Of a DNA stretch of 64,000 bases, positions 28,501-63,948 are shown one piece after another. The DNA comes from Mobula birostris. Taxonomy: Eukaryota. Within the stretch, counting starts at the first letter, position 1. Each line of letters begins with the position of its first letter. Under the pieces are notes generated by a model. That model saw only the letters and a program-made list of their open reading frames with translations. It had not been told where the DNA came from and made no database searches. The position numbers were made by a program, and so were the translations under genes. Where the stretch lies: assembly GCF_030028105.1 (NCBI RefSeq), contig NC_092398.1, forward strand, positions 23,079,649 to 23,143,648, in the 5' to 3' direction.

Positions 28501-31500
28501 ATCCCTCCCCCTCCTGTCTTCTCCTATCATTTTGGATCTCCCCCTCCCCCTCCCACTTTCAAATCTCTTACTAACTCTTCCTTCAGTTAGTCCTGACGAA
28601 GGGTCTCGGCCCAAAACGTCGACTGCACCTCTTCCTACAGATGCTGCCTGGCCTGCTGCGTTCACCAGCAACTTTGATGTGTGTTGCTTGAAATTCCAGC
28701 ATCTGCAGATTTCCTCGTGTTTGCGAGGTACAGGAGCCTGAAGGCACACACTCAGTGAATCAGAAACAGCTTCTTCCCCTCCGCCATCAGATTTCTGAAC
28801 GGACATGGAACCCGTGAACACTACCTCGATGTTTTTCCCTCTTTTTTTGTACAACTTAATAATAATTATATATTATTATTATTATTTGGTTTTTATTACT
28901 ATGTATGGCAACGTACTGCTGCCACAACACAACAAGTTTCATGGCATGTGCCGGTGACACTAAACTTGATTTTGATTCTAACTACCCCCGCAGATCGAAG
29001 GGCTGGACCCTGACAACGCCCGCGTGGTGGTACGGCTGGCGCTGGGCAATGAGGTGGTGACCGTCAGTCAGTACGGGCTCAATTACGTCAGCGCCGGAGA
29101 GTACCAGCGTTACAGCCGCGACCTGAGTGAGTTGGGGATGGGGACTGCGCAGGTCAGAGTAGACAGGGTCGCTGCCTGCACTGGGACTGTGCGTGCATAC
29201 AAGCCCCTGGCCTGCATAACACCGAGCTCCCCTCGACAGCACACAGGGGAGCAGAGAGATAGCGTTAGAGAGGGGATGTGGATAGAGGCGCCAGTACGTG
29301 GGGGGGGGGTGGAGGGCGAAGAGAGACACGGGTGAGGACAGGCGCTGGGGAGAGAGCTGTGGATGGAGGGATAGGGAGATGGTTGGGGATGGGGGAGGCC
29401 TCTCTCAGCTCAATGTCTTCTTCCTTCCCACAGGCCGGCTGAGCGCCGCCCACAGGGAAAGCCAACGGCAGCAGGAAGCCGCGCGGGGCAAGGAGGTTGA
29501 GAAGGAGAAACGCACAGAACACCGGGAAAGGAAGAGAAAGCATGAGGCCAGCGCAGAGAGGTGGGTCCGACCCCGCATCTGTGGAGGGAGTACTGGGAGA
29601 CCTCAGTAAACGAGGGTAGGACACACACCGTGAATGGTGGGGAGTATCAAGGGATAGAGGGATCTTTCTGTACAATGATCAGACACACTTTGTGAATAGT
29701 GGGGAGTGTCAAGGGATAGAACGACCTCGGTGTACAAGGGTAGGACACACACTGTGAATGGTAGGGAGTGTCGAGGGACAGAGGGACCTCGGTGTACAAT
29801 GGCAGGACACACTTTGTGTCAAGGGATAGAACGACCTCACACAAATTGTGTATGGTGGGGGGGTGTTGAGGGACAGCGGGACCTCGGTGTATGAGGGTAG
29901 GACTCACACCATTACTGATGTTGTCGCAGGAGTGAGGGAGGGGAAGTATGACGGGGAGGAGGATGTACTGTGGGAGGGGTTGTGCTCTGCCCCACAGGGA
30001 GGGGAGGTGGGAGCAGTGAGGAAGGGGGTAGTACCCAGGCAGCTAACGGTCACCGCTCTGCCCCCACAGGGACAGGAAACGGGACAAGCGGCCGAGCAGT
30101 CCCACTCCCCGCCGCCCGTGTTGGCTGCGCAGTGACCTGCTGGTCCGGCTCATCGACCGGCGCTACCAGAAGGGCGCCTACTATAACTGCAAGGTAACCC
30201 TGGCCTGGGTCACGGGGCTGGAGGTCGGAGGGCAAGGGGCAGTGACGATGCGGGGAGGGGGAGGCTGCCGGTGAGAGGAGGGAGGGGGATAAGGTGGGGG
30301 GAGGTGAAGGAGAGGGAAGTTCAGGGACGGTGTGAGGTATGTGGGGATGGGAAGGCAGGAGGGTGAAGGGGAGGATGGAGGTCAGTGGGAAGGGGTAAGG
30401 GCAGGGCTGGGGGAAGATGGAGGTCTGTGGGACGGAGGGAAGGGCAGGGGTTGGGAGGTGAGGGGGAAGATCAGGGTAGCTGGTGACAAGTGGACATCAG
30501 CTGGTGACGGGAGAGGAAGAGAGGAGGTGGGAAGAAGGGTCGGGGTTGTGGGGGAGGGAGGGAAGGTGGGACAGTGGGGGAGAACATTCAGAGATTTGGG
30601 GTGTAAAGGTGAAGGGAAGGGGTGAGTGTGGGGAAGGAGGGGAGAGGGAAAGGAGAAGAGGACAGTGGAAGCGTATGAGCCTCCTTCCACATTGATTCTG
30701 ATTTTTTCTCTCTCTCCGCCCCACCTCTAGGTCACCATCGAGGACGTGCTGAGCACTGACTCGTGTGTGTGTCGGACCGACGGTGGACGACTTCTGGAAG
30801 GTGGGAATCCCGGGACCGCGGGTGGGTGGGGAGGGTGGTGGCGGAGCACTGAGGGAGCGGCAAGGAAGGGCAAACGACCTGAGGCTGCAGAGCTCGGGCC
30901 GGTGCGACGGTGAAGTCCAGAGCAAGTGGCTGGCTGGCAAGAAGGCATACAGTACACTTGCCTTCAAAGCCAGCTTGCCCACAGTTTTATTTATTGAGAT
31001 ACAGCGTGGGACAGGCCCTTGGAGACTCCCCAACAGCAACGCACCGATTTTAACTACAGGCAATTTGCAACGACCAATTAACCCACCAACCAGTTCGTCT
31101 TTGGACTGTGGGACGGAAACCCACACATTCCACGCGGAGGACGTACAGGCTCCTTACAGATTGAACTCTGACACATCGAGCTGTAATGGGAGTCGCACTA
31201 TCCACTACGCTACCGTGGCGCCCAAGACTGAGGGAGCTGGTCAGCGGCACTTATTTTGGCTGGAAGTCCCTGAGCAGTGATTACCGCTGTCTAAAACTCT
31301 GCTTAGGCCTTTTGTGTTCAGTTCTGATCGCCCTGTTATGGGAAGAAGATACAGGGGGGCTTTGGAGAGGGGGCAGAAGAGGTTCTCCGGGATGCTGCCT
31401 GGGTTACAGCGATGAGCTTACAAAGTGAGGTTGGAAAAACTTGGGTTGTTTTCCTCCAAAGCAGCGAGGGCTGAGAAGTTGATTAAGATTGTAAGAGGGT

Positions 31501-52600: not shown

Positions 52601-55215
52601 CCTATAAGGAGAGGTTGGACAAACTTGAGTTGGCGGAGTATGTGGATGAGGTTGTAAATGAGGATCTCGTGTCAGCGCGAGGACATGGAGGATAGTGAGA
52701 TCAGTGGAGGATGCTAGTATGCCAGAGCATCATGAAATAGAGGAGATAAGTGTCCATTCGTTACTGTCATTCAACTGTACACGTCTACAGCCAAATGAAA
52801 CAACGTTCCTCCAGACCAAGGTGCACAACACAGTACATGTAACTCACACACAACACATAAAGTAATACTTATTTTGTTATGTTCGGTGTTGTACGATGTG
52901 GGCAATCATGATCTATCCATGATTGTTCTTGGCAAATTTTTCGACAGAAGTGGTTTGCCATTGCCTTCTTCTGGGCAGCATCTTTACAAGGCGGGTGACC
53001 CCAGCCATTGTCAATACTCTTCAGAGATAGTCTGCCTGGCATCAATGGTCACATGACCAGGACTTGAGATGTGCACCGGCTGCTCATACAACTGTCCCCC
53101 ATGGCTTCACATGATCGGGGGCTAAGCAGGTGCTACGCCTTGCCCAGGGCTAGCGGAGGGAAGGAGTGTCTTACACCTCCACTCAGAAGTAAGAGTAGGT
53201 TCTCTTAAAGAATTCAGGGAATATTTGATTCTGCGCTTTGCGCTCCCTGGAGTACAAATCGATAGTAAATAGTAAAAATTTAAATTACAAATCATAAATA
53301 GAAAATAGAAAAGGGAAAGCAAGGTAGTGCAAAAAACCAAGAGGCAGGCCCAGATATCTGGAGGGTATGGCCCAGATCCGGGTCAGGATCCATTCAGCAG
53401 TCTTATCACTGTTGAAAAGAAGCTGTTCCCAAATCTGGCCGTACAAGTCTTCAAGCTCCTGAGCTTTCTCCTGGAGGGAAGAGGGACGAAAGGTGTGTTG
53501 GCTGGGTGGGTCGTGTCCTTGATTATCCTGGCAGCACTGCTCCGACAGTGTGCGGTATAAAGTGAGTCCAAGGACGGAAGATTGGTTTGTGTGAGGTACT
53601 GCCCCGTGTTCACGATCTTCTGCAGCTTCTTTTGGTCTTGGACAGGACAACTTCCATACCAGGTTGTGATGCACCCTAGAAGAATGCTTTCTACGGTGCA
53701 TATATAAAAGTTAGTGAGGGTTTTACAGGACAGGCCAAATTTCTTTAGCTTTCTCAGGAAGTAAAGGCGCTGGTGGGCCTTCTTGGCAGTGAACTCTGCT
53801 TGGTTGGACCAAGTCAGGTCATTTGTGATATTGACCCCGAGGAACTTAAAGCTTTTGACCTGTTCCACTTGCGCACCACCAATGTAAATGGGGTCGTGCA
53901 GTCCGCTACTCCTTCTGAAGTCAACAACCAATTCCTTCGTCTTGCTGACGTTGAGGGATAGGTTATTGTCTTCGCACCATGCCACCAAGTTCTTAATTTC
54001 CTCTCTGTACTCAAACTCATCATTACCCGAGGTACGGCCGACAATTGTGGTGTCATCAGCAAACTTATACACTGAGTTCGATAGATATATATAGCTCTTG
54101 TAATTGATTTACTTATTTATTCCTTTCTTTCTATATTACAATGTATTGCATTGTACTACTGGTGCTAAGTTAACAAACTTCATGACACATGCTGATATTA
54201 AACCCAATTCTGATTCAAATGGCTGTTACACAGACACGAGTGCAGTGAATGGAGGGAGATGGGTCACGATAACAGCGGGGTAGAAGCTATCCTCGAGCCT
54301 GGTGGGACATGATTTCACACTTTTCTTTCTCCTGCCCCATGGGAGAGGGGAGAAATAGGAGCAGGAGTAGGCCATCTGGCCTGTTGAGCCTGCTCTGCCA
54401 TTCAATCAGATCATGGCTGACCTGACCATGGACTCATCTCCACCTATCCGCCTTTTCACCATAACCCTTAATTCCCCTACTATGCAAAGACCTACCCGAC
54501 CTTGTCTTAAAAATATTTACTGAGGTAGCCTCCACTGCTTCATTGGGCAGATAATTCCACAGATTCACCAGTCTTTGGGAAAAACTTCATCAACCATGGG
54601 TTAGATAACGGTGACCATTAGGGCACGATAACAGCTGGGTAGAAGCTATCCTCGAGCACTCAGGGCACCCCTTGCCCTCCTGCCCAAAGCACCCAGATGT
54701 GGAACCATCTTGTTTTGGGCTCCCTCTCAGTCTAGAGGGGAAACATTCACCATTTCCCTCCCCATAGATGCTGCCCGACCGATTTAACCATGTCACCTGA
54801 GAACAACTCGCGCTATCACTATTATTTAGAATTTGTCTCCTTTTTTGCACATTGGCTCTTTCTCAGTTTATGTTTTTTTTACATAAATTCTATTTATTTT
54901 CCGGTAGATGTTCGCATTTGCTGACCGGTATGTACTTTGATAATAAAGTAATCGGCTTTCCGGATCACGTGACACAATCGCCGACCCGGAGAGCAGGTGG
55001 GCCACGTGACTTAGCTCCCCGCGAGGGGCTCACGTGACGATATTCCGCGCTATCCGCTGTCTACGCAGGCGCAATGCGTTCCGCCCGGACAACGCAAGCC
55101 CGCTAACCCCCGTAACCTTGCCACCGCTGCCGATGGGTCTCCCCGGGGTCGTCCCCCCCATCCGCACTGCCCGCCGCCCGGCACCGTACCATGGTTCGCG
55201 GGCGTACTCCTCCAT
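37559..55215 (-). CDS. TIMM17B: Mitochondrial import inner membrane translocase subunit Tim17-B, complete, 169 aa
   Basis: complement(join(55190-55215,47390-47489,45471-45534,44699-44827,38111-38221,37559-37638)) = 510 nt. [29 protein letters not shown]...; the C-terminal [11 protein letters not shown] tail and head-to-head position with PQBP1 indicate the B paralogue. Confidence 0.97.
38111..38221 (-). CDS. TIMM17B: TIMM17B coding exon 5
   Basis: [36 protein letters not shown], 111 nt. Confidence 0.96.
38996..39477 (+). mobile_element. CR1-like 3' end nested in the Rex1 element
   Basis: [19 protein letters not shown]; 7-bp TSD aagagtc (38989-38995 and 39478-39484). Confidence 0.88.
39869..40379. 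mobile_element. PIF/Harbinger-like MITE nested in the Rex1 element
   Basis: About 37-bp TIRs aggctgatttatacttgtgcgtcaactc / gagttgacgcagaagcataaatcagcct; flanks tta / tca. Confidence 0.85.
42676..43915 (-). mobile_element. L1-type LINE 3' end interrupted by an insertion at 42821-43710
   Basis: Minus strand ...[20 protein letters not shown], followed by a T-rich 3' UTR ending aataaaaa. Confidence 0.65.
42821..43710 (+). pseudogene. Probable processed retrocopy of an unidentified polyadenylated transcript
   Basis: AATAAA at 43672-43677, poly(A) at 43702-43710, and flanking direct repeat aaaaag(t/g)gagggg (42808-42820 and 43706-43718). Confidence 0.6.
44699..44827 (-). CDS. TIMM17B: TIMM17B coding exon 4
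   Basis: [42 protein letters not shown], 129 nt. Confidence 0.96.
45471..45534 (-). CDS. TIMM17B: TIMM17B coding exon 3
   Basis: [21 protein letters not shown], 64 nt. Confidence 0.96.
47390..47489 (-). CDS. TIMM17B: TIMM17B coding exon 2
   Basis: [33 protein letters not shown], 100 nt. Confidence 0.96.
49060..49335 (+). mobile_element. tRNA-derived SINE (related copies at about 25560-25770 -, 30985-31225 - and 31610-31810 +)
   Basis: tagcggttagc...gagttca head; core ggtttcctccgggtgctccagtttcctcccacagt. Confidence 0.8.
49383..49915 (+). mobile_element. RTE-like non-autonomous element with HDV-like fold at its 5' end; diverged inverted copy at about 50400-50862
   Basis: The two copies align from catggggtgtcc to ...ccacttt(a/g)aaaactctcc...tttcctgtca. 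Confidence 0.7.
53190..54080 (-). mobile_element. Young Rex1/Babar-type LINE 3' end with open RT C-terminal frame
   Basis: Uninterrupted 229-aa frame [11 protein letters not shown]...[15 protein letters not shown]...FKFLGV...[12 protein letters not shown]. Confidence 0.92.
55190..55215 (-). CDS. TIMM17B: TIMM17B coding exon 1
   Basis: aacATG GAG GAG TAC GCC CGC GAA CCA TG|gtacgg, 26 nt. Confidence 0.95.
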
Positions 55216-55639
55216 GTTGCTCCGCGGCCGACGGGCGCTCCCCGCCGCCGCCTGGTGACGACAGTACGACGGCTCCGCTTCTTGTCACGTGCCCCTCCTT
55301 GCCTGGCGTCACGGCCAAACCGTCAGGTCGAACGACGGATTACGTCAGACGTGTCAGGTGACGCAATTCCTCATTAAACGCGATTGCTGCAGAACCGAAA
55401 GGAAACGTGAACGTTAAACATTCTGTACATATTGCTGAAGCGGTTTTGTCTTCTTGTTCTGATTGGATGACGTGAATGCCAATCAATGAGGTTTTCCCAC
55501 CTCCAGGAGACGTCGCATGCGTCGTTGAATGAGTCCGAATCAGTCAAATGGTGAATGACCCCACCTTCACGGTCTCCGATTGGCCCGAAAGACCGTCCAT
55601 CACCAGCAGACGCGTCTAATTGTGACGTTTACAACCTGC

Positions 55640-55692
55640 GACGGACGACCACGTTAATGGAACGCGACAAAACGGAGTCGCTGCTGTTGAGG
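55640..55692 (+). other. PQBP1: Probable non-coding first exon of PQBP1 (start approximate)
   Basis: Strong donor gagg|gtgagt at 55692/55693 at the edge of the CpG island; matching acceptor cccccgcag| before 58107. Confidence 0.6.
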
Positions 55693-55857
55693 GTGAGTGA
55701 CTGAGGGCCAGAGTGAGGGAGGGAGAGAATGAGGGGAAAGTGAGGGAAGTACGCATGATCATGTCGTCTGTTTATAACCGTAACCCCGGTCTTTCCGAGC
55801 CTTGACGCCGTTATCCCGTCACTCTGCCCTCTGATCCTTGACCCTTGACCTAGGCAT

Positions 55858-55996
55858 CAACACGAGAAAATCTGCAGGTGCTGGAAGTTCAAACAACTAT
55901 CCTGACGAAGGGTCTCGGCCCGAAACGTCGACTGTATTTCTTTCTATAGATGCTGCCTGGCCTGCTGCGTTTCACTAGCATTTTGTGTGTGTGTTA
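55858..55996 (+). mobile_element. Penelope-like terminal-repeat fragment (inverted tail plus hammerhead unit)
   Basis: cacgagaaaatctgcaggtgctgga (inverted family tail), then ctgacgaagggtctcggcccgaaacgtcgactg...gatgctgcctggcctgctgcg. Confidence 0.75.
55897..55934 (+). ncRNA. Minimal type I hammerhead ribozyme motif
   Basis: CUGACGA at 55902-55908, stem II GGGU-CUCG-GCCC, GAAAC at 55922-55926, GUC cleavage triplet at 55927-55929. Confidence 0.7.
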
Positions 55997-56429
55997 CCGT
56001 AATTCGTCATTCTGACTTCTGACCTAGGTTGTGATCGCTCTGGTACCTGGACCACAATTTGTTCATAATCCCGTAGCTCTGACCTCTGCTCCAGGATGTG
56101 ACCGTAACCAATTGCTCTGACCCTTGACCCAGACTGAGACGGTAACCAGTCGCTCTGACCCTTGACCCAGCCTGTGTGCGTAACTCCGTTACTCTGACCC
56201 CTAACCCTGGATCTGACCAGGTGTAGAGTGCCCAAGGCTGGCATTTCTGAGACATGGGTCCCCTGGGGTCACAGGCAGCCATCACTCCCTTCCCCCTTAT
56301 GTTGGCAGAGAGACATCATCACAGTGATCCCCTTCACAGCTCTGCCGGTGGTGCTCCACACTCGACATTTCCAACATCCTTTGCTCCCACCAGATTTACA
56401 AACTCCTCTCTGCTCCATGTTGACAAATA

Positions 56430-56496
56430 CAGTACTGTGCAAAATCTCAGGCACCCCAGCAAAATATATAGTGCCTAAAACTTTTGCATAATACCG
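56430..56496. mobile_element. Tiny Tc1/mariner-type MITE
   Basis: TIRs cagtactgtgcaaaatctcaggcac / gtgcctaaaacttttgcataataccg with TA flanks. Confidence 0.7.
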
Positions 56497-57050
56497 TATA
56501 TGTCACCATATACACCCCGATGAGATTCATTTTCTTACGGGCATACTCACGAAATCTGATAGCCATAATAAAATCAATGAAACACCACACCAACAGGGCA
56601 GACCACCAGTGTGCCAAAGACAACATAGTCATACTTTATTGATGCTGGGAAAAATTGGTTTTCATTACAGTTGCACCATAAATAATAAATAGTAATGGAA
56701 CCATAAATAGTTAAATGGTAATATGTAAATTATGCCAGTAAATTATGAAATAAGCCCAGGACCAACCTATTGGCTCAGGGTGTCTGACCCTCCAAGGGAG
56801 GAGTTGTAAAGTTTGATGGCCACAGGCAGGAATGACTTCCTATGAAGCTCTGTGCTGCATCTTGGTGGAATGAGTCCCACCGAGATTGCACAAAATGTGC
56901 AATTACAAAAAGAAAGAAAAATAATATATAAATAAGCAATAAATATCGAGGACATGAGATGAAGAGTCCTTGAAAGTGGATCCATAGGTTGTGGGAACAT
57001 TTCAATGATGGGGCGAGTGAAGTTTTCCCCTTTGGTTCAAGAGCCTGATG

Positions 57051-57559
57051 CCGACATCCCACCCTGCAAAAACTTATTTCAGGGAGGTAGCACCAGCAAT
57101 TTGCGGGATACTCCCATAACTTCCGGGAGAGGTGGGATGTCTGCAGTAGAGTAGCTCCTTAGCAGCTAGCCAGCTGGTTTAAATAACATTATCTACGCTA
57201 ATGAACGAATGATACCTGTTAAATTCACCTCATCATGTCTTTTACAGTCTTACCCCACCATGGGCAATAGAAAAGTCACTGTTGCAAACAGTGCAGTGAG
57301 CAACACTGTCATTATTTTGACCCCTATTAGGCAGGGGTACACTTTAGTGTAGTTTGGGGTGACGTATGTTTTATATTTTCTTCTTTTGGAACACTCTGCC
57401 ATGGCGCGCTCATGCTCTCTCTGTTGTGGTCGCTCTCGTGCGCTCTCTCACTCTCAAAAAAATTGGTTTCCATGATATTGTACATAATTTGCGGGCATCA
57501 GGGAGCCACTATCAATATGCAGGAGACTCCCGGAACCTCCGGGAGAGGTGGGATGTCTG
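57051..57559. mobile_element. Non-autonomous DNA transposon (hAT-like)
   Basis: TIRs ccgacatcccacc / ggtgggatgtctg and flanking ctgatg duplication; an internal copy of the right end sits at about 57110-57143. Confidence 0.75.
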
Positions 57560-58167
57560 CTGATGGCTGAGAGGTAATAACTGTTCCTGAACCGGTCGGT
57601 GTGAGCTCCTAATGGCAGTGGCGAGATGAACTATGAACTTTGAACTTCTCACTGCCTCAGTAAAGCAGCCAGCAGAATCAAAGACCCCACCCACCCCCGA
57701 CATGGTCCCTTCTCCCCCCCCCATCGAGCAGAAGATTCAAAAGCCTGAAAGCACCTCCCACCAGGCTCAGGGACAGCTTCTACCCCCCCCCCCCCGTTAG
57801 AAGACAACTGAACGGTTCTCTCGTGCAATTAGTTGGACCCCCTACCTCACAGACTACCTCGTGATGACTTTCAATTGTATTGTCTACCTGCACTGCACTC
57901 TCTCTGTAACTGTTACACTCTATTCTGCATTCTGTGATTGTTTTACCTTGTTCTCCCTTGCGCTCTGTGTAATGATCAGATCTGTATGGACAGTGTGCAA
58001 GACGAGCTTTTCCCTGTATCTCGGCACCTGTGACAATAATTAATGCCAACGAGGAATTGCATTGTACCCACTGTGTTGGACGATAATCTGATTTGTGCCC
58101 CCGCAGTTCGGCGCCTGGCGTCCGACGGCCTGAACAGGAAGACGTGCTCACTGGTCCTCCCCCCACC

Positions 58168-58234
58168 ATGCCTCTCCCCCTGGCGCTCCAAGCCCGTCTG
58201 GCCAAGCGAGGCATCCTCAAGCACGTGGAACCAG
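58168..58234 (+). CDS. PQBP1: PQBP1 first coding exon
   Basis: ccaccATG Kozak context; donor cag|gtatgt; 67 nt. Confidence 0.95.
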
Positions 58235-61200: not shown

Positions 61201-63948
61201 CATCCGTCCCCCCCTCAACATTCACCCCGACCACTCTCCCACCAACTCCACAGAGCCCGACGAGGAGATTATCGCTGAAGACTACGACGATGATCACATC
61301 GATTACGAAGCCACGCGGCTGGAGAATCTGCCCCCCAACTGGTACAAGGTCTTCGAGCCCAGCAGGTGAGGCTCACTGGGTGTTGACGTCTCCCCTCTAT
61401 CTCACTCTCCCTCTCTCCCACCCCTCCTGTGTCTGTCTCTCCCCACCTTCCTGGCAAAGCCTCTCCATCCCAATCCCTCTCCTTTCCCCGACTATCCCCC
61501 TCCACTTTCCCCGACTCTGCCTTCCGTCACACCCACTTTCTCTCTCACTTTCCCGCCCTCCTCACTGTTGTGTGTTCACTCTCAAATACCTTTGGAGATG
61601 ACGCAGCAAGAATGTGCAGCGGGTAGGGACGCTGTCTCCCAGCTCTTGAAACGCAGGCTCGATGCCGACTTCCACCACTCTATCTGTCCCTCTGTGTGTC
61701 CGTGTGTGCGCGTGTGTGGTGCCTGTGACCTGTGGGTTTCCTCCCTTCACTCCCGTGCCCAATCGGACATGCGGGGTCAGGAGCTTGTGGTTTGTGTGAG
61801 AGATGGCGTGACGGTGATGGGCGACGGGGAACGATTGGTCTGAGTACTGAGACTGTAATGGAAACTATTGAAGAGAACTACAGGACGTAAGACAGATCTG
61901 TCACCAGGGTGAGGTGGTTCTCACCGAAAGAGATTAGTGGGATTCAGGGGAGCTTTGTAAAGCATCAGTCAGACTGCAACACACACAAAATGCTGGAGGA
62001 ACTCAGCAGGCTAGGCAGCATCTAGGAAAACAATACAGTCGACATTTCGGGCCAGAACCCTTTGGCAGGACTACACTTTGGAGTACTGTGAGCAGTATTG
62101 GGCCCCTTATCTAAGAAAGGATGTGCTGGCAATAGAGAGGGTCCAGAGAAGGTTCATGAGAATGATCCCGGGAATGAAAGGGTTCACGTATGAGGAGCGT
62201 TGACAGCTCTGGGCCTGTGCTCACTGGAGTTCAGAAGAGTGAATTCATTGAAACCTATCGGATATTGAAAGCACGCAATAGAGTTGACAAGGAGGGTATG
62301 TTTCCTGTAGTGAGGGAGTCTAGGACCATAGGGCACAGCCTCAGAATAGAAAGATGTCCATTTAGAACAGAAACGAGGAAGAATTTCTTTAGTCAGAGGC
62401 TGGTGAGTCTGGAATTCATTGCCACAGGCAGCTGTGGAGGCCAAGTCATTGGGTGTATTTAAATCAAAGCTTGATAGGTTCCTAATTAGTCAGAGTGTTA
62501 AAGGTTACGAGTATGGGGTTGAGAGGGATAATAAATCAGCCATGATGGAATGGCAGAGCAGGCTCGATGGGCCAAATGGCCTAATTCTGCCCCTGTACCT
62601 GTAATTGGGTGCTTGTGGATGCTTTCAGAATGACACTCCTCCTATTAAGCTCCTTCTGCCCACCCTGAACTATCCCCGTTGGTGGGGGAGGTGGGAGTTG
62701 GGACCAGGAAAGCCGCAGGGGAGGGGATTGGCTGCCCAGGTTGAGGGGTAACTCGGTTCAGTCCACCTGCAAGGAAGTACAATTGAGTAGGAACAACTTT
62801 AGTGGGCGGTAGGGTGGAGGCCGCGGAGGGAAGGAGGAGGAGGACAAGTGAGAGTATCCGGGAGGGGAGAGGGCGAGTGTGGAGAGTTGGCATCGGGAGG
62901 AGGCGAGAGTTGGGGGGGGAACGGGGAGGGACAAATGGATGAAGTGTTGGGAGAGGAGGAAGAGACAACGAGGAGGGAGCAGAGGGACATGCAGATGGAG
63001 GGTCATGGGGGGGGTGGAAGGCCAGGAAGGGGGGAGAAAACTAGAATGTCGGGCAAGTGGAAACTAGAGGGTCAGGAAGGGGGAAGAAGAGACTGCAGGG
63101 TCGGGGGGGTTACTGTGGAAGGTCAGGGAAGGGAAGGGGAAATGAGGATCAGGGAGGGGGGAGAAGAGACTGCAGAGTCGGGGGGGTTACTGTGGAAGAT
63201 CAGGGAAGGGAAGCGGAAACAAGGATCAGGGAGGGGAAGTCTGTGGAGGGTCAGGGAGGGCAGAGAGGGAGAGTGGAGGGTCAGGGAGGGCGGGGGGTAG
63301 ACTAGAGGGCAGGGAGGGGGGAAGAGGAGACTGGAGGATCAGGGAGGGGTGGAGACTGGAGGGTCGGGGGTTACTCTGGAAGGTCAGGGGAGGGGAAGGG
63401 AAAACAAGGATCAGGGAGGGGGCAGAGACTGGAGGTTCAGTGGGGCGGGGCAAGGAGACCGGACGGTCGGGGGGAACTGGAAGGAGTGGGGAGGGGACGC
63501 CAGAGGTTCAAGGAGGAGGGAGGACACTGGAATGTCGGGGGGGGGAGGGAAGACAGTGGAGGGTTAGGGAGGGTGGAGGGGGGAGACGGGGGGGTCAGGG
63601 AGGGTAGAGGGGTAGACTGTGGAGGATCAGGGAAGGGGGAGGAACTGTGGAAGGTCAGGGAGGGGGGAGGAAACTGGAATATCAGGGAAGGAGAAAGGGG
63701 AGACTTTGGAGGGTCAGGGAAGGGGAAGGGCAAACGATCAGGAAGGGGGAGACTGGAGGGTCGGTGGGGGGGAGAGACTGTACAGGGTCAGCGGGGATTG
63801 GGAGATGGGCAAAACGACAGCCAGTAACTCTGACCCCTTGCCCCCAGCGGCCTGCCCTACTACTGGAACATCGAGACTGACCTGGTGTCCTGGCTGCCTC
63901 CCACTGACGCGGCTGCCGTCATCACCAAGTCCGCCAAGAAACTGAAAG
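58168..63948 (+). CDS. PQBP1: Polyglutamine-binding protein 1, 5' part including the WW domain; continues beyond the window
   Basis: join(58168-58234,61254-61365,63848-63948). [78 protein letters not shown]... Confidence 0.97.
58276..58386. repeat. Near-perfect inverted repeat: 53-bp arms, 5-nt loop
   Basis: 58276-58328 is the reverse complement of 58334-58386 with one mismatch. Confidence 0.97.
59028..60620 (-). mobile_element. CR1-like LINE, degenerate ORF2
   Basis: [36 protein letters not shown] and conserved 3' tail. Confidence 0.9.
61254..61365 (+). CDS. PQBP1: PQBP1 second coding exon
   Basis: [10 protein letters not shown]...LPPNWYKVF; 112 nt. Confidence 0.95.
62074..62600 (+). mobile_element. 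CR1-like LINE 3' end
   Basis: [16 protein letters not shown]...GHSLRIE and tail ctcgatgggccaaatggcctaattctgc. Confidence 0.88.
63060..63765. repeat. Purine-rich degenerate minisatellite (gactggagggtcagggaagggg)
   Basis: Recurrent unit throughout the PQBP1 intron. Confidence 0.8.
63848..63948 (+). CDS. PQBP1: PQBP1 third coding exon
   Basis: [33 protein letters not shown]; donor aag|gtgatt. Confidence 0.93.

Follow-up and report, generated by a model that had tools for sequence, protein, structure and literature searches.

The PQBP1-like locus and its promoter setting

The window, meaning the whole 64,000-nucleotide stretch of DNA analysed here, contains two genes arranged head-to-head, in which the first exon of a TIMM17-like gene (minus strand, ATG at 55215) opposes exon 1 of a PQBP1-like gene. 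RNA contigs from two presumed RNA runs, X1 (depth 145) and X2 (depth 449), join this exon 1 to position 58107 and agree with the window without a single difference over 472 nt and 502 nt, respectively, delimiting a 5'-UTR intron of 2,414 nt with GT..AG borders, and the coding exons start at 58168 (Table 1). Because these contigs bridge the donor (55693) and the acceptor (58106), the hammerhead motif considered here, whose core begins 209 nt inside intron 1, lies on the sense strand of that intron, in agreement with the earlier note, which had placed it about 210 nt past the exon 1 donor of PQBP1. The gene name is our assumption, based on the human protein and on synteny with a head-to-head TIMM17-like gene, and no database match names it. 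The downstream exons encode a PQBP1-like N-terminus with a weakly matched WW domain (Pfam E 0.02; two of the three query exons were out of frame), and in the databases searched for support of the name, the PDB returned nothing relevant, Atlas values stayed below 0.9, and Pfam gave the weak WW match only.

The shared promoter region is a CpG island, and the hammerhead copy lies at its downstream edge, the observed/expected CpG ratio (CpG o/e) dropping to about 0.3 by 56100. RNA contigs are uninterrupted over 55190-55691, which suggests that the 5' ends of the TIMM17-like gene and PQBP1 overlap or abut. In exon 1, an upstream ATG (55657-55692 spliced to 58107-58133) would open a 20-codon uORF with its stop in exon 2, before the main start at 58168. 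Run X5, from a related organism, carries 13 additional nt at 55338 in the promoter region, which look like a short duplication in tandem.

Table 1. Coordinates of the features of the locus and of the hammerhead-bearing copies in the window
Feature	Position	Strand	Remark
CpG island, shared head-to-head promoter region	54751..55950	.	CpG o/e 0.96-1.31 in 300-nt windows
Host intron 1, PQBP1-like gene	55693..58106	+	GT..AG joint in X1 and X2 RNA contigs
Inverted copy of the 3' tail of the Penelope-like element, 39 nt	55859..55897	-	90% to the reverse complement of the sibling tail at 28683-28721
5'-truncated, tail-less pLTR fragment bearing the hammerhead	55898..55995	+	84-89% to the window's three best siblings
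Residual 5' strand of helix I, 2 bp, at the truncation junction	55900..55901	+	5 bp in siblings
Catalytic box CUGACGA (55902-55908) and extra unpaired A (55909)	55902..55909	+	
Helix II, 4 bp: GGGU (55910-13), loop CUCG (55914-17), GCCC (55918-21)	55910..55921	+	G10.1-C11.1 closing pair
GAAA (55922-25), C55926, G55927, U55928, C55929	55922..55929	+	GUC triplet; predicted cleavage after 55929
3' strand of helix I, GACUG, intact	55930..55934	+	
Other hammerhead copies in the window	28593, 17347, 62068, 51343, 16712	+, -, -, -, + (in order)	

Anatomy of the hammerhead motif

Read base by base, positions 55902-55934 hold a complete hammerhead core, a 4-bp helix II with pair probabilities of 0.88-0.99 in local folds, and an ACGU palindrome. 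The earlier note had listed all the catalytic-core bases (CUGAnGA, GAAA and UH) as present, and each of them can be placed within 55902-55929; it had also described helix III as reduced to a loop-less ACGU, and this palindrome is found at 55925-28, where it replaces helix III and leaves no loop 3. The predicted scissile bond is 55929/55930. The description of the minimal hammerhead as intact holds for the core but fails for helix I, of which two of the five pairs seen in siblings are left. Compared with the minimal hammerheads (min-HHRs) of Penelope-like elements (PLEs), the copy shows the core, a helix II with G10.1-C11.1 and an unpaired 5' base, no helix III and a palindromic 15.2-16.2; the helix I of 4-5 bp that belongs to this class is present in the family, whereas the PQBP1-intron copy has 2 bp. 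The PQBP1-intron copy is a damaged member of the PLE minimal hammerheads.

The covariance-model search that the earlier note had suggested did not recover the motif, Rfam giving 0 matches at the gathering threshold in the window and none with E<=10 in 55700-56100, and a loose hammerhead pattern matched twice in the 64-kb window against 1.23 matches expected, which is not above chance. A chance match was nevertheless rejected as a reading, the 4.0-Gb genome containing 7,407 exact occurrences of the 32-nt core and none of its reversed control. Among 52 distinct copies, a single decaying family that provides little power, covariation was 0.189 versus 0.188 in shuffled alignments (211/500), and helix cells changed on both sides numbered 13 versus 8.1 in shuffles (23/500). 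Because within-family covariation is not above shuffles, the structure assignment rests on motif anatomy and PLE context.

Parent element and architecture of the insertion

Longer copies of the family run upstream from the shared sequence, via a pyrimidine-rich repeat, into a broken ORF, which in two copies (L031 and L032) contains reverse transcriptase (RT) motifs, a CxxxxCxxC linker and a CCHH GIY-YIG domain with two internal cysteines upstream of the hammerhead. Stops and frameshifts break both of the parent copies examined, and a CX2-5CxxC linker lies between RT and the C-terminal CCHH GIY-YIG in both long copies. The endonuclease frame matched Pfam GIY-YIG at E 0.0015, which is below the cut-off, and Atlas GIY-YIG clusters at 0.96. 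The RT pieces, both frameshifted, had no match in Pfam (RVT_1) or the PDB, so their identity as RT rests on sequence motifs. With RT and GIY-YIG coding sequence upstream of it in longer copies, the loop-less type I hammerhead comes from a PLE terminal repeat, as the earlier note had proposed. The Neptune/Nematis EN+ clade is described as defined by a linker between RT and CCHH GIY-YIG (PMC8557442), and the parent is putatively a Neptune/Nematis-type PLE, an assignment made from the linker motif and not from a tree.

The insertion in intron 1 comprises 137 nt, in which an inverted 39-nt tail is joined to a 5'-truncated terminal-repeat fragment. This inverted tail is the part missing from the direct arm, which begins at helix I, ends (at about 55995) where the tail would start, and reaches up to 97% to copies elsewhere in the genome. 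The insertion signature of EN+ PLEs, in which a tail of 30-40 bp and an inverted, 5'-truncated neighbour are expected, is thereby found here with its 39-nt inverted tail; no target-site duplication was recognised by eye at the PQBP1-intron copy. A tandem of non-LTR retrozymes was also considered and rejected, as the insertion is single and the nearest hammerhead-bearing copies lie 4.6 kb and 6.2 kb away on the other strand.

The short helix I had been attributed to the loss of one G relative to sibling copies. The 2-bp helix I is confirmed, but the missing G may equally reflect a 5'-truncation junction, because 10 of 12 examined copies that share the TATC start have flanks unrelated to the upstream sequence of the family, and the other two have truly lost a single G. 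The same helix I edge is the start of 12 of the 90 family copies listed out of 1,947 matches, and the short helix I therefore represents typical junction damage. In full copies, a pyrimidine tract and an AG stand immediately 5' of helix I, which the truncation has removed here; they precede helix I at window positions 28560-28590 and in most long copies (for example L005, L009 and L019). In Penelope of D. virilis, an intron is reported to end at the position of the AG before helix I (PMC4209133), and by analogy the pyrimidine tract and AG of full copies likely constitute the splice acceptor of a terminal-repeat intron. The loss of this predicted acceptor would therefore make a sense intronic copy easier to tolerate.

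Family size and neutral decay

Approximately 6,055 exact copies of the core start with AGTC (full helix I) and 23 with TATC like the PQBP1-intron copy, both counts coming from patterns trimmed by one base at the 3' end. Across 34 stretches of 10 kb placed arbitrarily (340 kb), 37 copies covering the hammerhead were found, five of them fully intact, which extrapolates to a family of about 437,000 copies (95% 308,000-602,000) and about 59,000 fully intact ones (19,000-138,000). Variation among 67 unselected copies concentrates at five CpGs, and the catalytic G8 and G12 are struck as readily as neutral positions, G8 being retained in 50 of 65 copies and G12 in 52 of 66. The family decays neutrally at CpGs, catalytic G8 and G12 included.

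All five CpGs are kept in 5 of the 67 sampled copies, among them the PQBP1-intron copy, which lies at a CpG o/e of 0.96. This copy is little diverged from its nearest relatives, although the yardstick is a copy selected for likeness to it, which biases the age estimate towards youth. Youth and a position at the CpG-island edge, where CpGs are lost slowly, would account for the pristine look of the core. CpGs dispensable for catalysis have been kept and the needed helix I has been lost, a combination that fits protection from methylation, the methylation status being read from CpG content, and not selection for cleavage.

The five other hammerhead-bearing copies in the window are all damaged in the core or helix II. 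The copy at 28593 is sense and intronic, between GPKOW-like exons, and has lost G12. The copy at 62068 lies in antisense orientation within the PQBP1 intron that the exons at 61254 and 63849 flank. To examine strand bias, host genes were also sought for three intact neighbouring copies, where Pfam searches of 126 candidate ORFs returned LINE and coiled-coil matches only, one control exon likewise going unmatched. A LINE at L082:5901-9472 (+), with a coiled-coil ORF1-like frame, an AP endonuclease and RT pieces (RVT_1 E 3e-28), sits 2.6 kb from the fully intact hammerhead copy L082:3222.

Truncation points across family copies

Truncation points were compared among 90 copies (L099-L188), the first 90 of 100 listed out of 1,947 matches, all from one contig and chosen by a pattern 3' of the ribozyme. 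In this sample, the 3' ends are bimodal, about 36 nt apart, and an inverted neighbour accompanies 26 of the 57 truncated copies. Together, the tail, the bimodal 3' ends and the inverted neighbours match the PLE signature (PMC8557442) and the two RT start sites described for the anole element (PMC11167929). At L105/L106, L111/L112 and L113, copies form inverted pairs, head to head, in which just one arm has the tail, and apparent target-site duplications of 9-13 nt can be read by eye.

The 5' truncations of the same 90 listed copies cluster within the hairpin, 29 of the 90 falling in 31 nt (-34 to -4 from the cleavage site) versus 16 in 88 flanking nt (binomial p 7e-8, for a window picked post hoc and with at least two pairs being arms of one insertion), and 19 of these 29 are flagged with an inverted neighbour. 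Hairpin self-similarity can move alignment ends in such an analysis, and the clustering is a lead; it suggests that reverse transcription stalls or switches template inside the ribozyme hairpin. Copies starting within 3 nt of the cleavage site number 3 of the 90 listed out of 1,947, with no peak at low power, in a test that concerns only copies reverse-transcribed from cleaved RNA. The truncation points give no sign of cleaved RNA as the usual template.

Predicted folding and capacity to cut

In three context lengths, the PQBP1-intron RNA is predicted to form an inactive rod. In this rod, CGUCG, which spans the cleavage site, is bound by the catalytic UGACG, and positions 55926-55929 are paired to the copy's own core (unpaired probability <=0.03). 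The predicted energy of the intramolecular rod is about -10 kcal/mol here and -13 kcal/mol in partners. Compared with the sibling:sibling dimer, the designed active dimer of this copy is penalised by 2.1 kcal/mol when the partner is a sibling and by 4.2 kcal/mol when the copy pairs with itself, these being relative values only, as nearest-neighbour energies omit Mg2+ and core tertiary contacts and place the sibling dimer at +10 kcal/mol. A bulged alternative for the dimer is predicted to be worse (-9.8 vs -12.0 kcal/mol). X1 and X2 also contain an RNA-contig joint at 55924-56624, which lies away from the cleavage site and probably derives from another repeat locus. In the four RNA runs used, of six listed, no contig covers the unique intron flanks, and since contigs show neither RNA ends nor strand, these data do not speak for or against cleavage at 55929/55930.

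A double hammerhead (dimer) model has been put forward for minimal PLE hammerheads (PMC4209133). In such a dimer, one molecule would, by reasoning from the model, give the 5' helix I strand and the core, and the other the GUC and the 3' strand. The missing G would harm only the enzyme role of the PQBP1-intron copy, and the trans geometry of the earlier note is therefore coherent; the note is also right that the copy could be cut only with a partner, its own helix I being damaged and its 3' substrate strand intact. Family sequence with an intact helix I strand occurs in many contigs in all four presumed RNA runs, and partners may thus exist.

Published minimal PLE hammerheads are described as inactive monomers that are weak even as cis tandem dimers (PMC4209133). 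The anole PLE hammerhead cleaves only with the PLE protein, and no RNA-seq ends are reported at its site (PMC11167929). One of nine Xenopus retrozyme dimers is reported to have cleaved (bioRxiv 10.64898/2026.07.22.740005). For Schistosoma SINE hammerheads, both cis and trans cleavage are reported in vitro (review PMC6765202). Tuning of mRNA maturation is described for the intronic Cpeb3 ribozyme, whose half-life is 2-3 min (PMC10919898).

Interpretation and alternative explanations

The reading that we favour, with a probability of roughly 90%, is that a 137-nt dead-on-arrival insertion of a PLE end carried the family's minimal hammerhead into intron 1 of PQBP1, where it is likely inert and spliced out. 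Reverse transcription would have begun at the two internal start sites of the element and ended in the ribozyme hairpin, where short copies most often end, and the truncation would have taken most of helix I together with the upstream pyrimidine tract and AG that likely form a splice acceptor. Youth and the position at the CpG-island edge would have kept the core CpGs from decaying, and the RNA rod, pairing UGACG with CGUCG, is predicted to allow no cleavage alone, nor with a partner at nuclear concentrations.

The earlier note had instead envisaged a repeat-dosage switch. In the form weighed here, an intact family transcript would supply the enzyme strand, form 5 bp in helix I and 4 bp across the ACGU palindrome, and cut PQBP1 pre-mRNA at 55929 so frequently that PQBP1 output falls when the repeats are expressed. 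Such a switch has a feasible geometry, in which the missing G touches only the copy's own enzyme strand, and thousands of intact partners are encoded, with family sequence abundant in the presumed RNA runs; Schistosoma SINE hammerheads (PMC6765202) and the Cpeb3 ribozyme (PMC10919898) offer precedents. However, 9 intermolecular bp plus 2 would have to compete with rods of about -10 kcal/mol (here) and -13 kcal/mol (partners), minimal hammerheads are reported to be poorly active even as cis dimers (PMC4209133), and nothing in the scheme is specific to PQBP1, as better substrates number in the thousands. This is one copy among ~10^5, worse than thousands of its siblings and with its substrate strand predicted to be sequestered, the family undergoes CpG-driven decay of its catalytic bases, and spliced PQBP1 mRNA was readily assembled in X1 and X2. 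The switch on PQBP1 is left unsupported by these data and is very unlikely. A genome-wide trans-cleavage network, built on tens of thousands of intact motifs and plentiful family RNA, in which rising PLE transcripts or protein would lead to the cutting of intronic sense copies (this substrate-only one among them) before splicing and dampen host genes, is highly doubtful too.

Incidental nicking of the intron at a low level, or nicking assisted by a bound PLE protein or RNA chaperone, would have no regulatory role and is improbable, if somewhat less so than the switch. The anole Poseidon hammerhead is reported to cleave only after the PLE protein is added (PMC11167929), and the core of the PQBP1-intron copy is complete; yet its helix I is 2 bp, the bulged dimer alternative is predicted to be worse, and the two parent copies examined carry disrupting stops and frameshifts. 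The 2-bp helix I of D. virilis Penelope is accompanied by a small helix III (PMC4209133), which is absent here. Least probable is that the copy has been kept for a non-catalytic role at the promoter edge, as an extension of the CpG-rich island or as an intronic hairpin affecting splicing. Its position at the island edge and its five retained CpGs agree with this, but passive protection against methylation gives the same data, the insertion folds with an unremarkable energy (z -0.31), and no alternative splice joint into the copy occurs among the stronger joints listed.

Under the favoured reading of an inert PLE-end insertion, the PQBP1-intron copy by itself matters little, being one damaged copy of a known RNA class. 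The ~59,000 extrapolated intact motifs would provide statistical power to test for in vivo cleavage by PLE minimal hammerheads, a question raised in PMC4209133 and PMC11167929. In the small sample here, truncation ends are in excess within the hairpin but not at the cleavage site, which is relevant to the way PLE reverse transcription stops and inverts. The trans switch, if true, would be a new way for transposon expression to act on host gene dosage.

Comparison with known systems

Metazoan PLE minimal hammerheads were reportedly treated by Lunse et al. in 2017 (cited through PMC6765202). Repeat content and genome size point to a probable cartilaginous-fish host. The literature searches made listed no paper on this PLE hammerhead family in sharks or rays, and the supplements of PMC4209133 and of the Lunse paper may list it. 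The RNA class itself has been known since 2014 (Cervera & de la Pena, PMC4209133). As described there, the min-HHRs of metazoan PLEs share with this family the type I order, the CUGAnGA/GAAA/UH core, the extra base between 9 and 10.1, G10.1-C11.1, the palindromic 15.2-16.2, the absence of helix III and the location in the pLTR, and they occur mostly as single dispersed copies, as here. In contrast, helix II has 7-8 bp in the Schistosoma families described and 4 bp in this one, and the family is far larger than the ~4,000 (coelacanth) and 9,000 (Xenopus) motifs counted in 2014 (PMC4209133).

Unlike Neptune/Nematis PLEs, the PQBP1-intron insertion is without coding sequence. The Poseidon_Ac (PAc) element of the green anole (Frangieh et al. 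2024, PMC11167929) is described as having a hammerhead of stems I and II only and two RT start sites that define its tail, matching the bimodal 3' ends of this family. It differs in belonging to the Penelope/Poseidon clade, in which the linker zinc finger is missing, and in being active and studied together with its protein. The amniote intronic ribozymes, including the RECK hammerheads and the HDV-like CPEB3 ribozyme, are likewise self-cleaving motifs in sense orientation within introns. These ribozymes are conserved across species, and for Cpeb3 both self-scission and an effect on mRNA are reported to have been measured (PMC10919898), whereas the PQBP1-intron motif is a young repeat copy.
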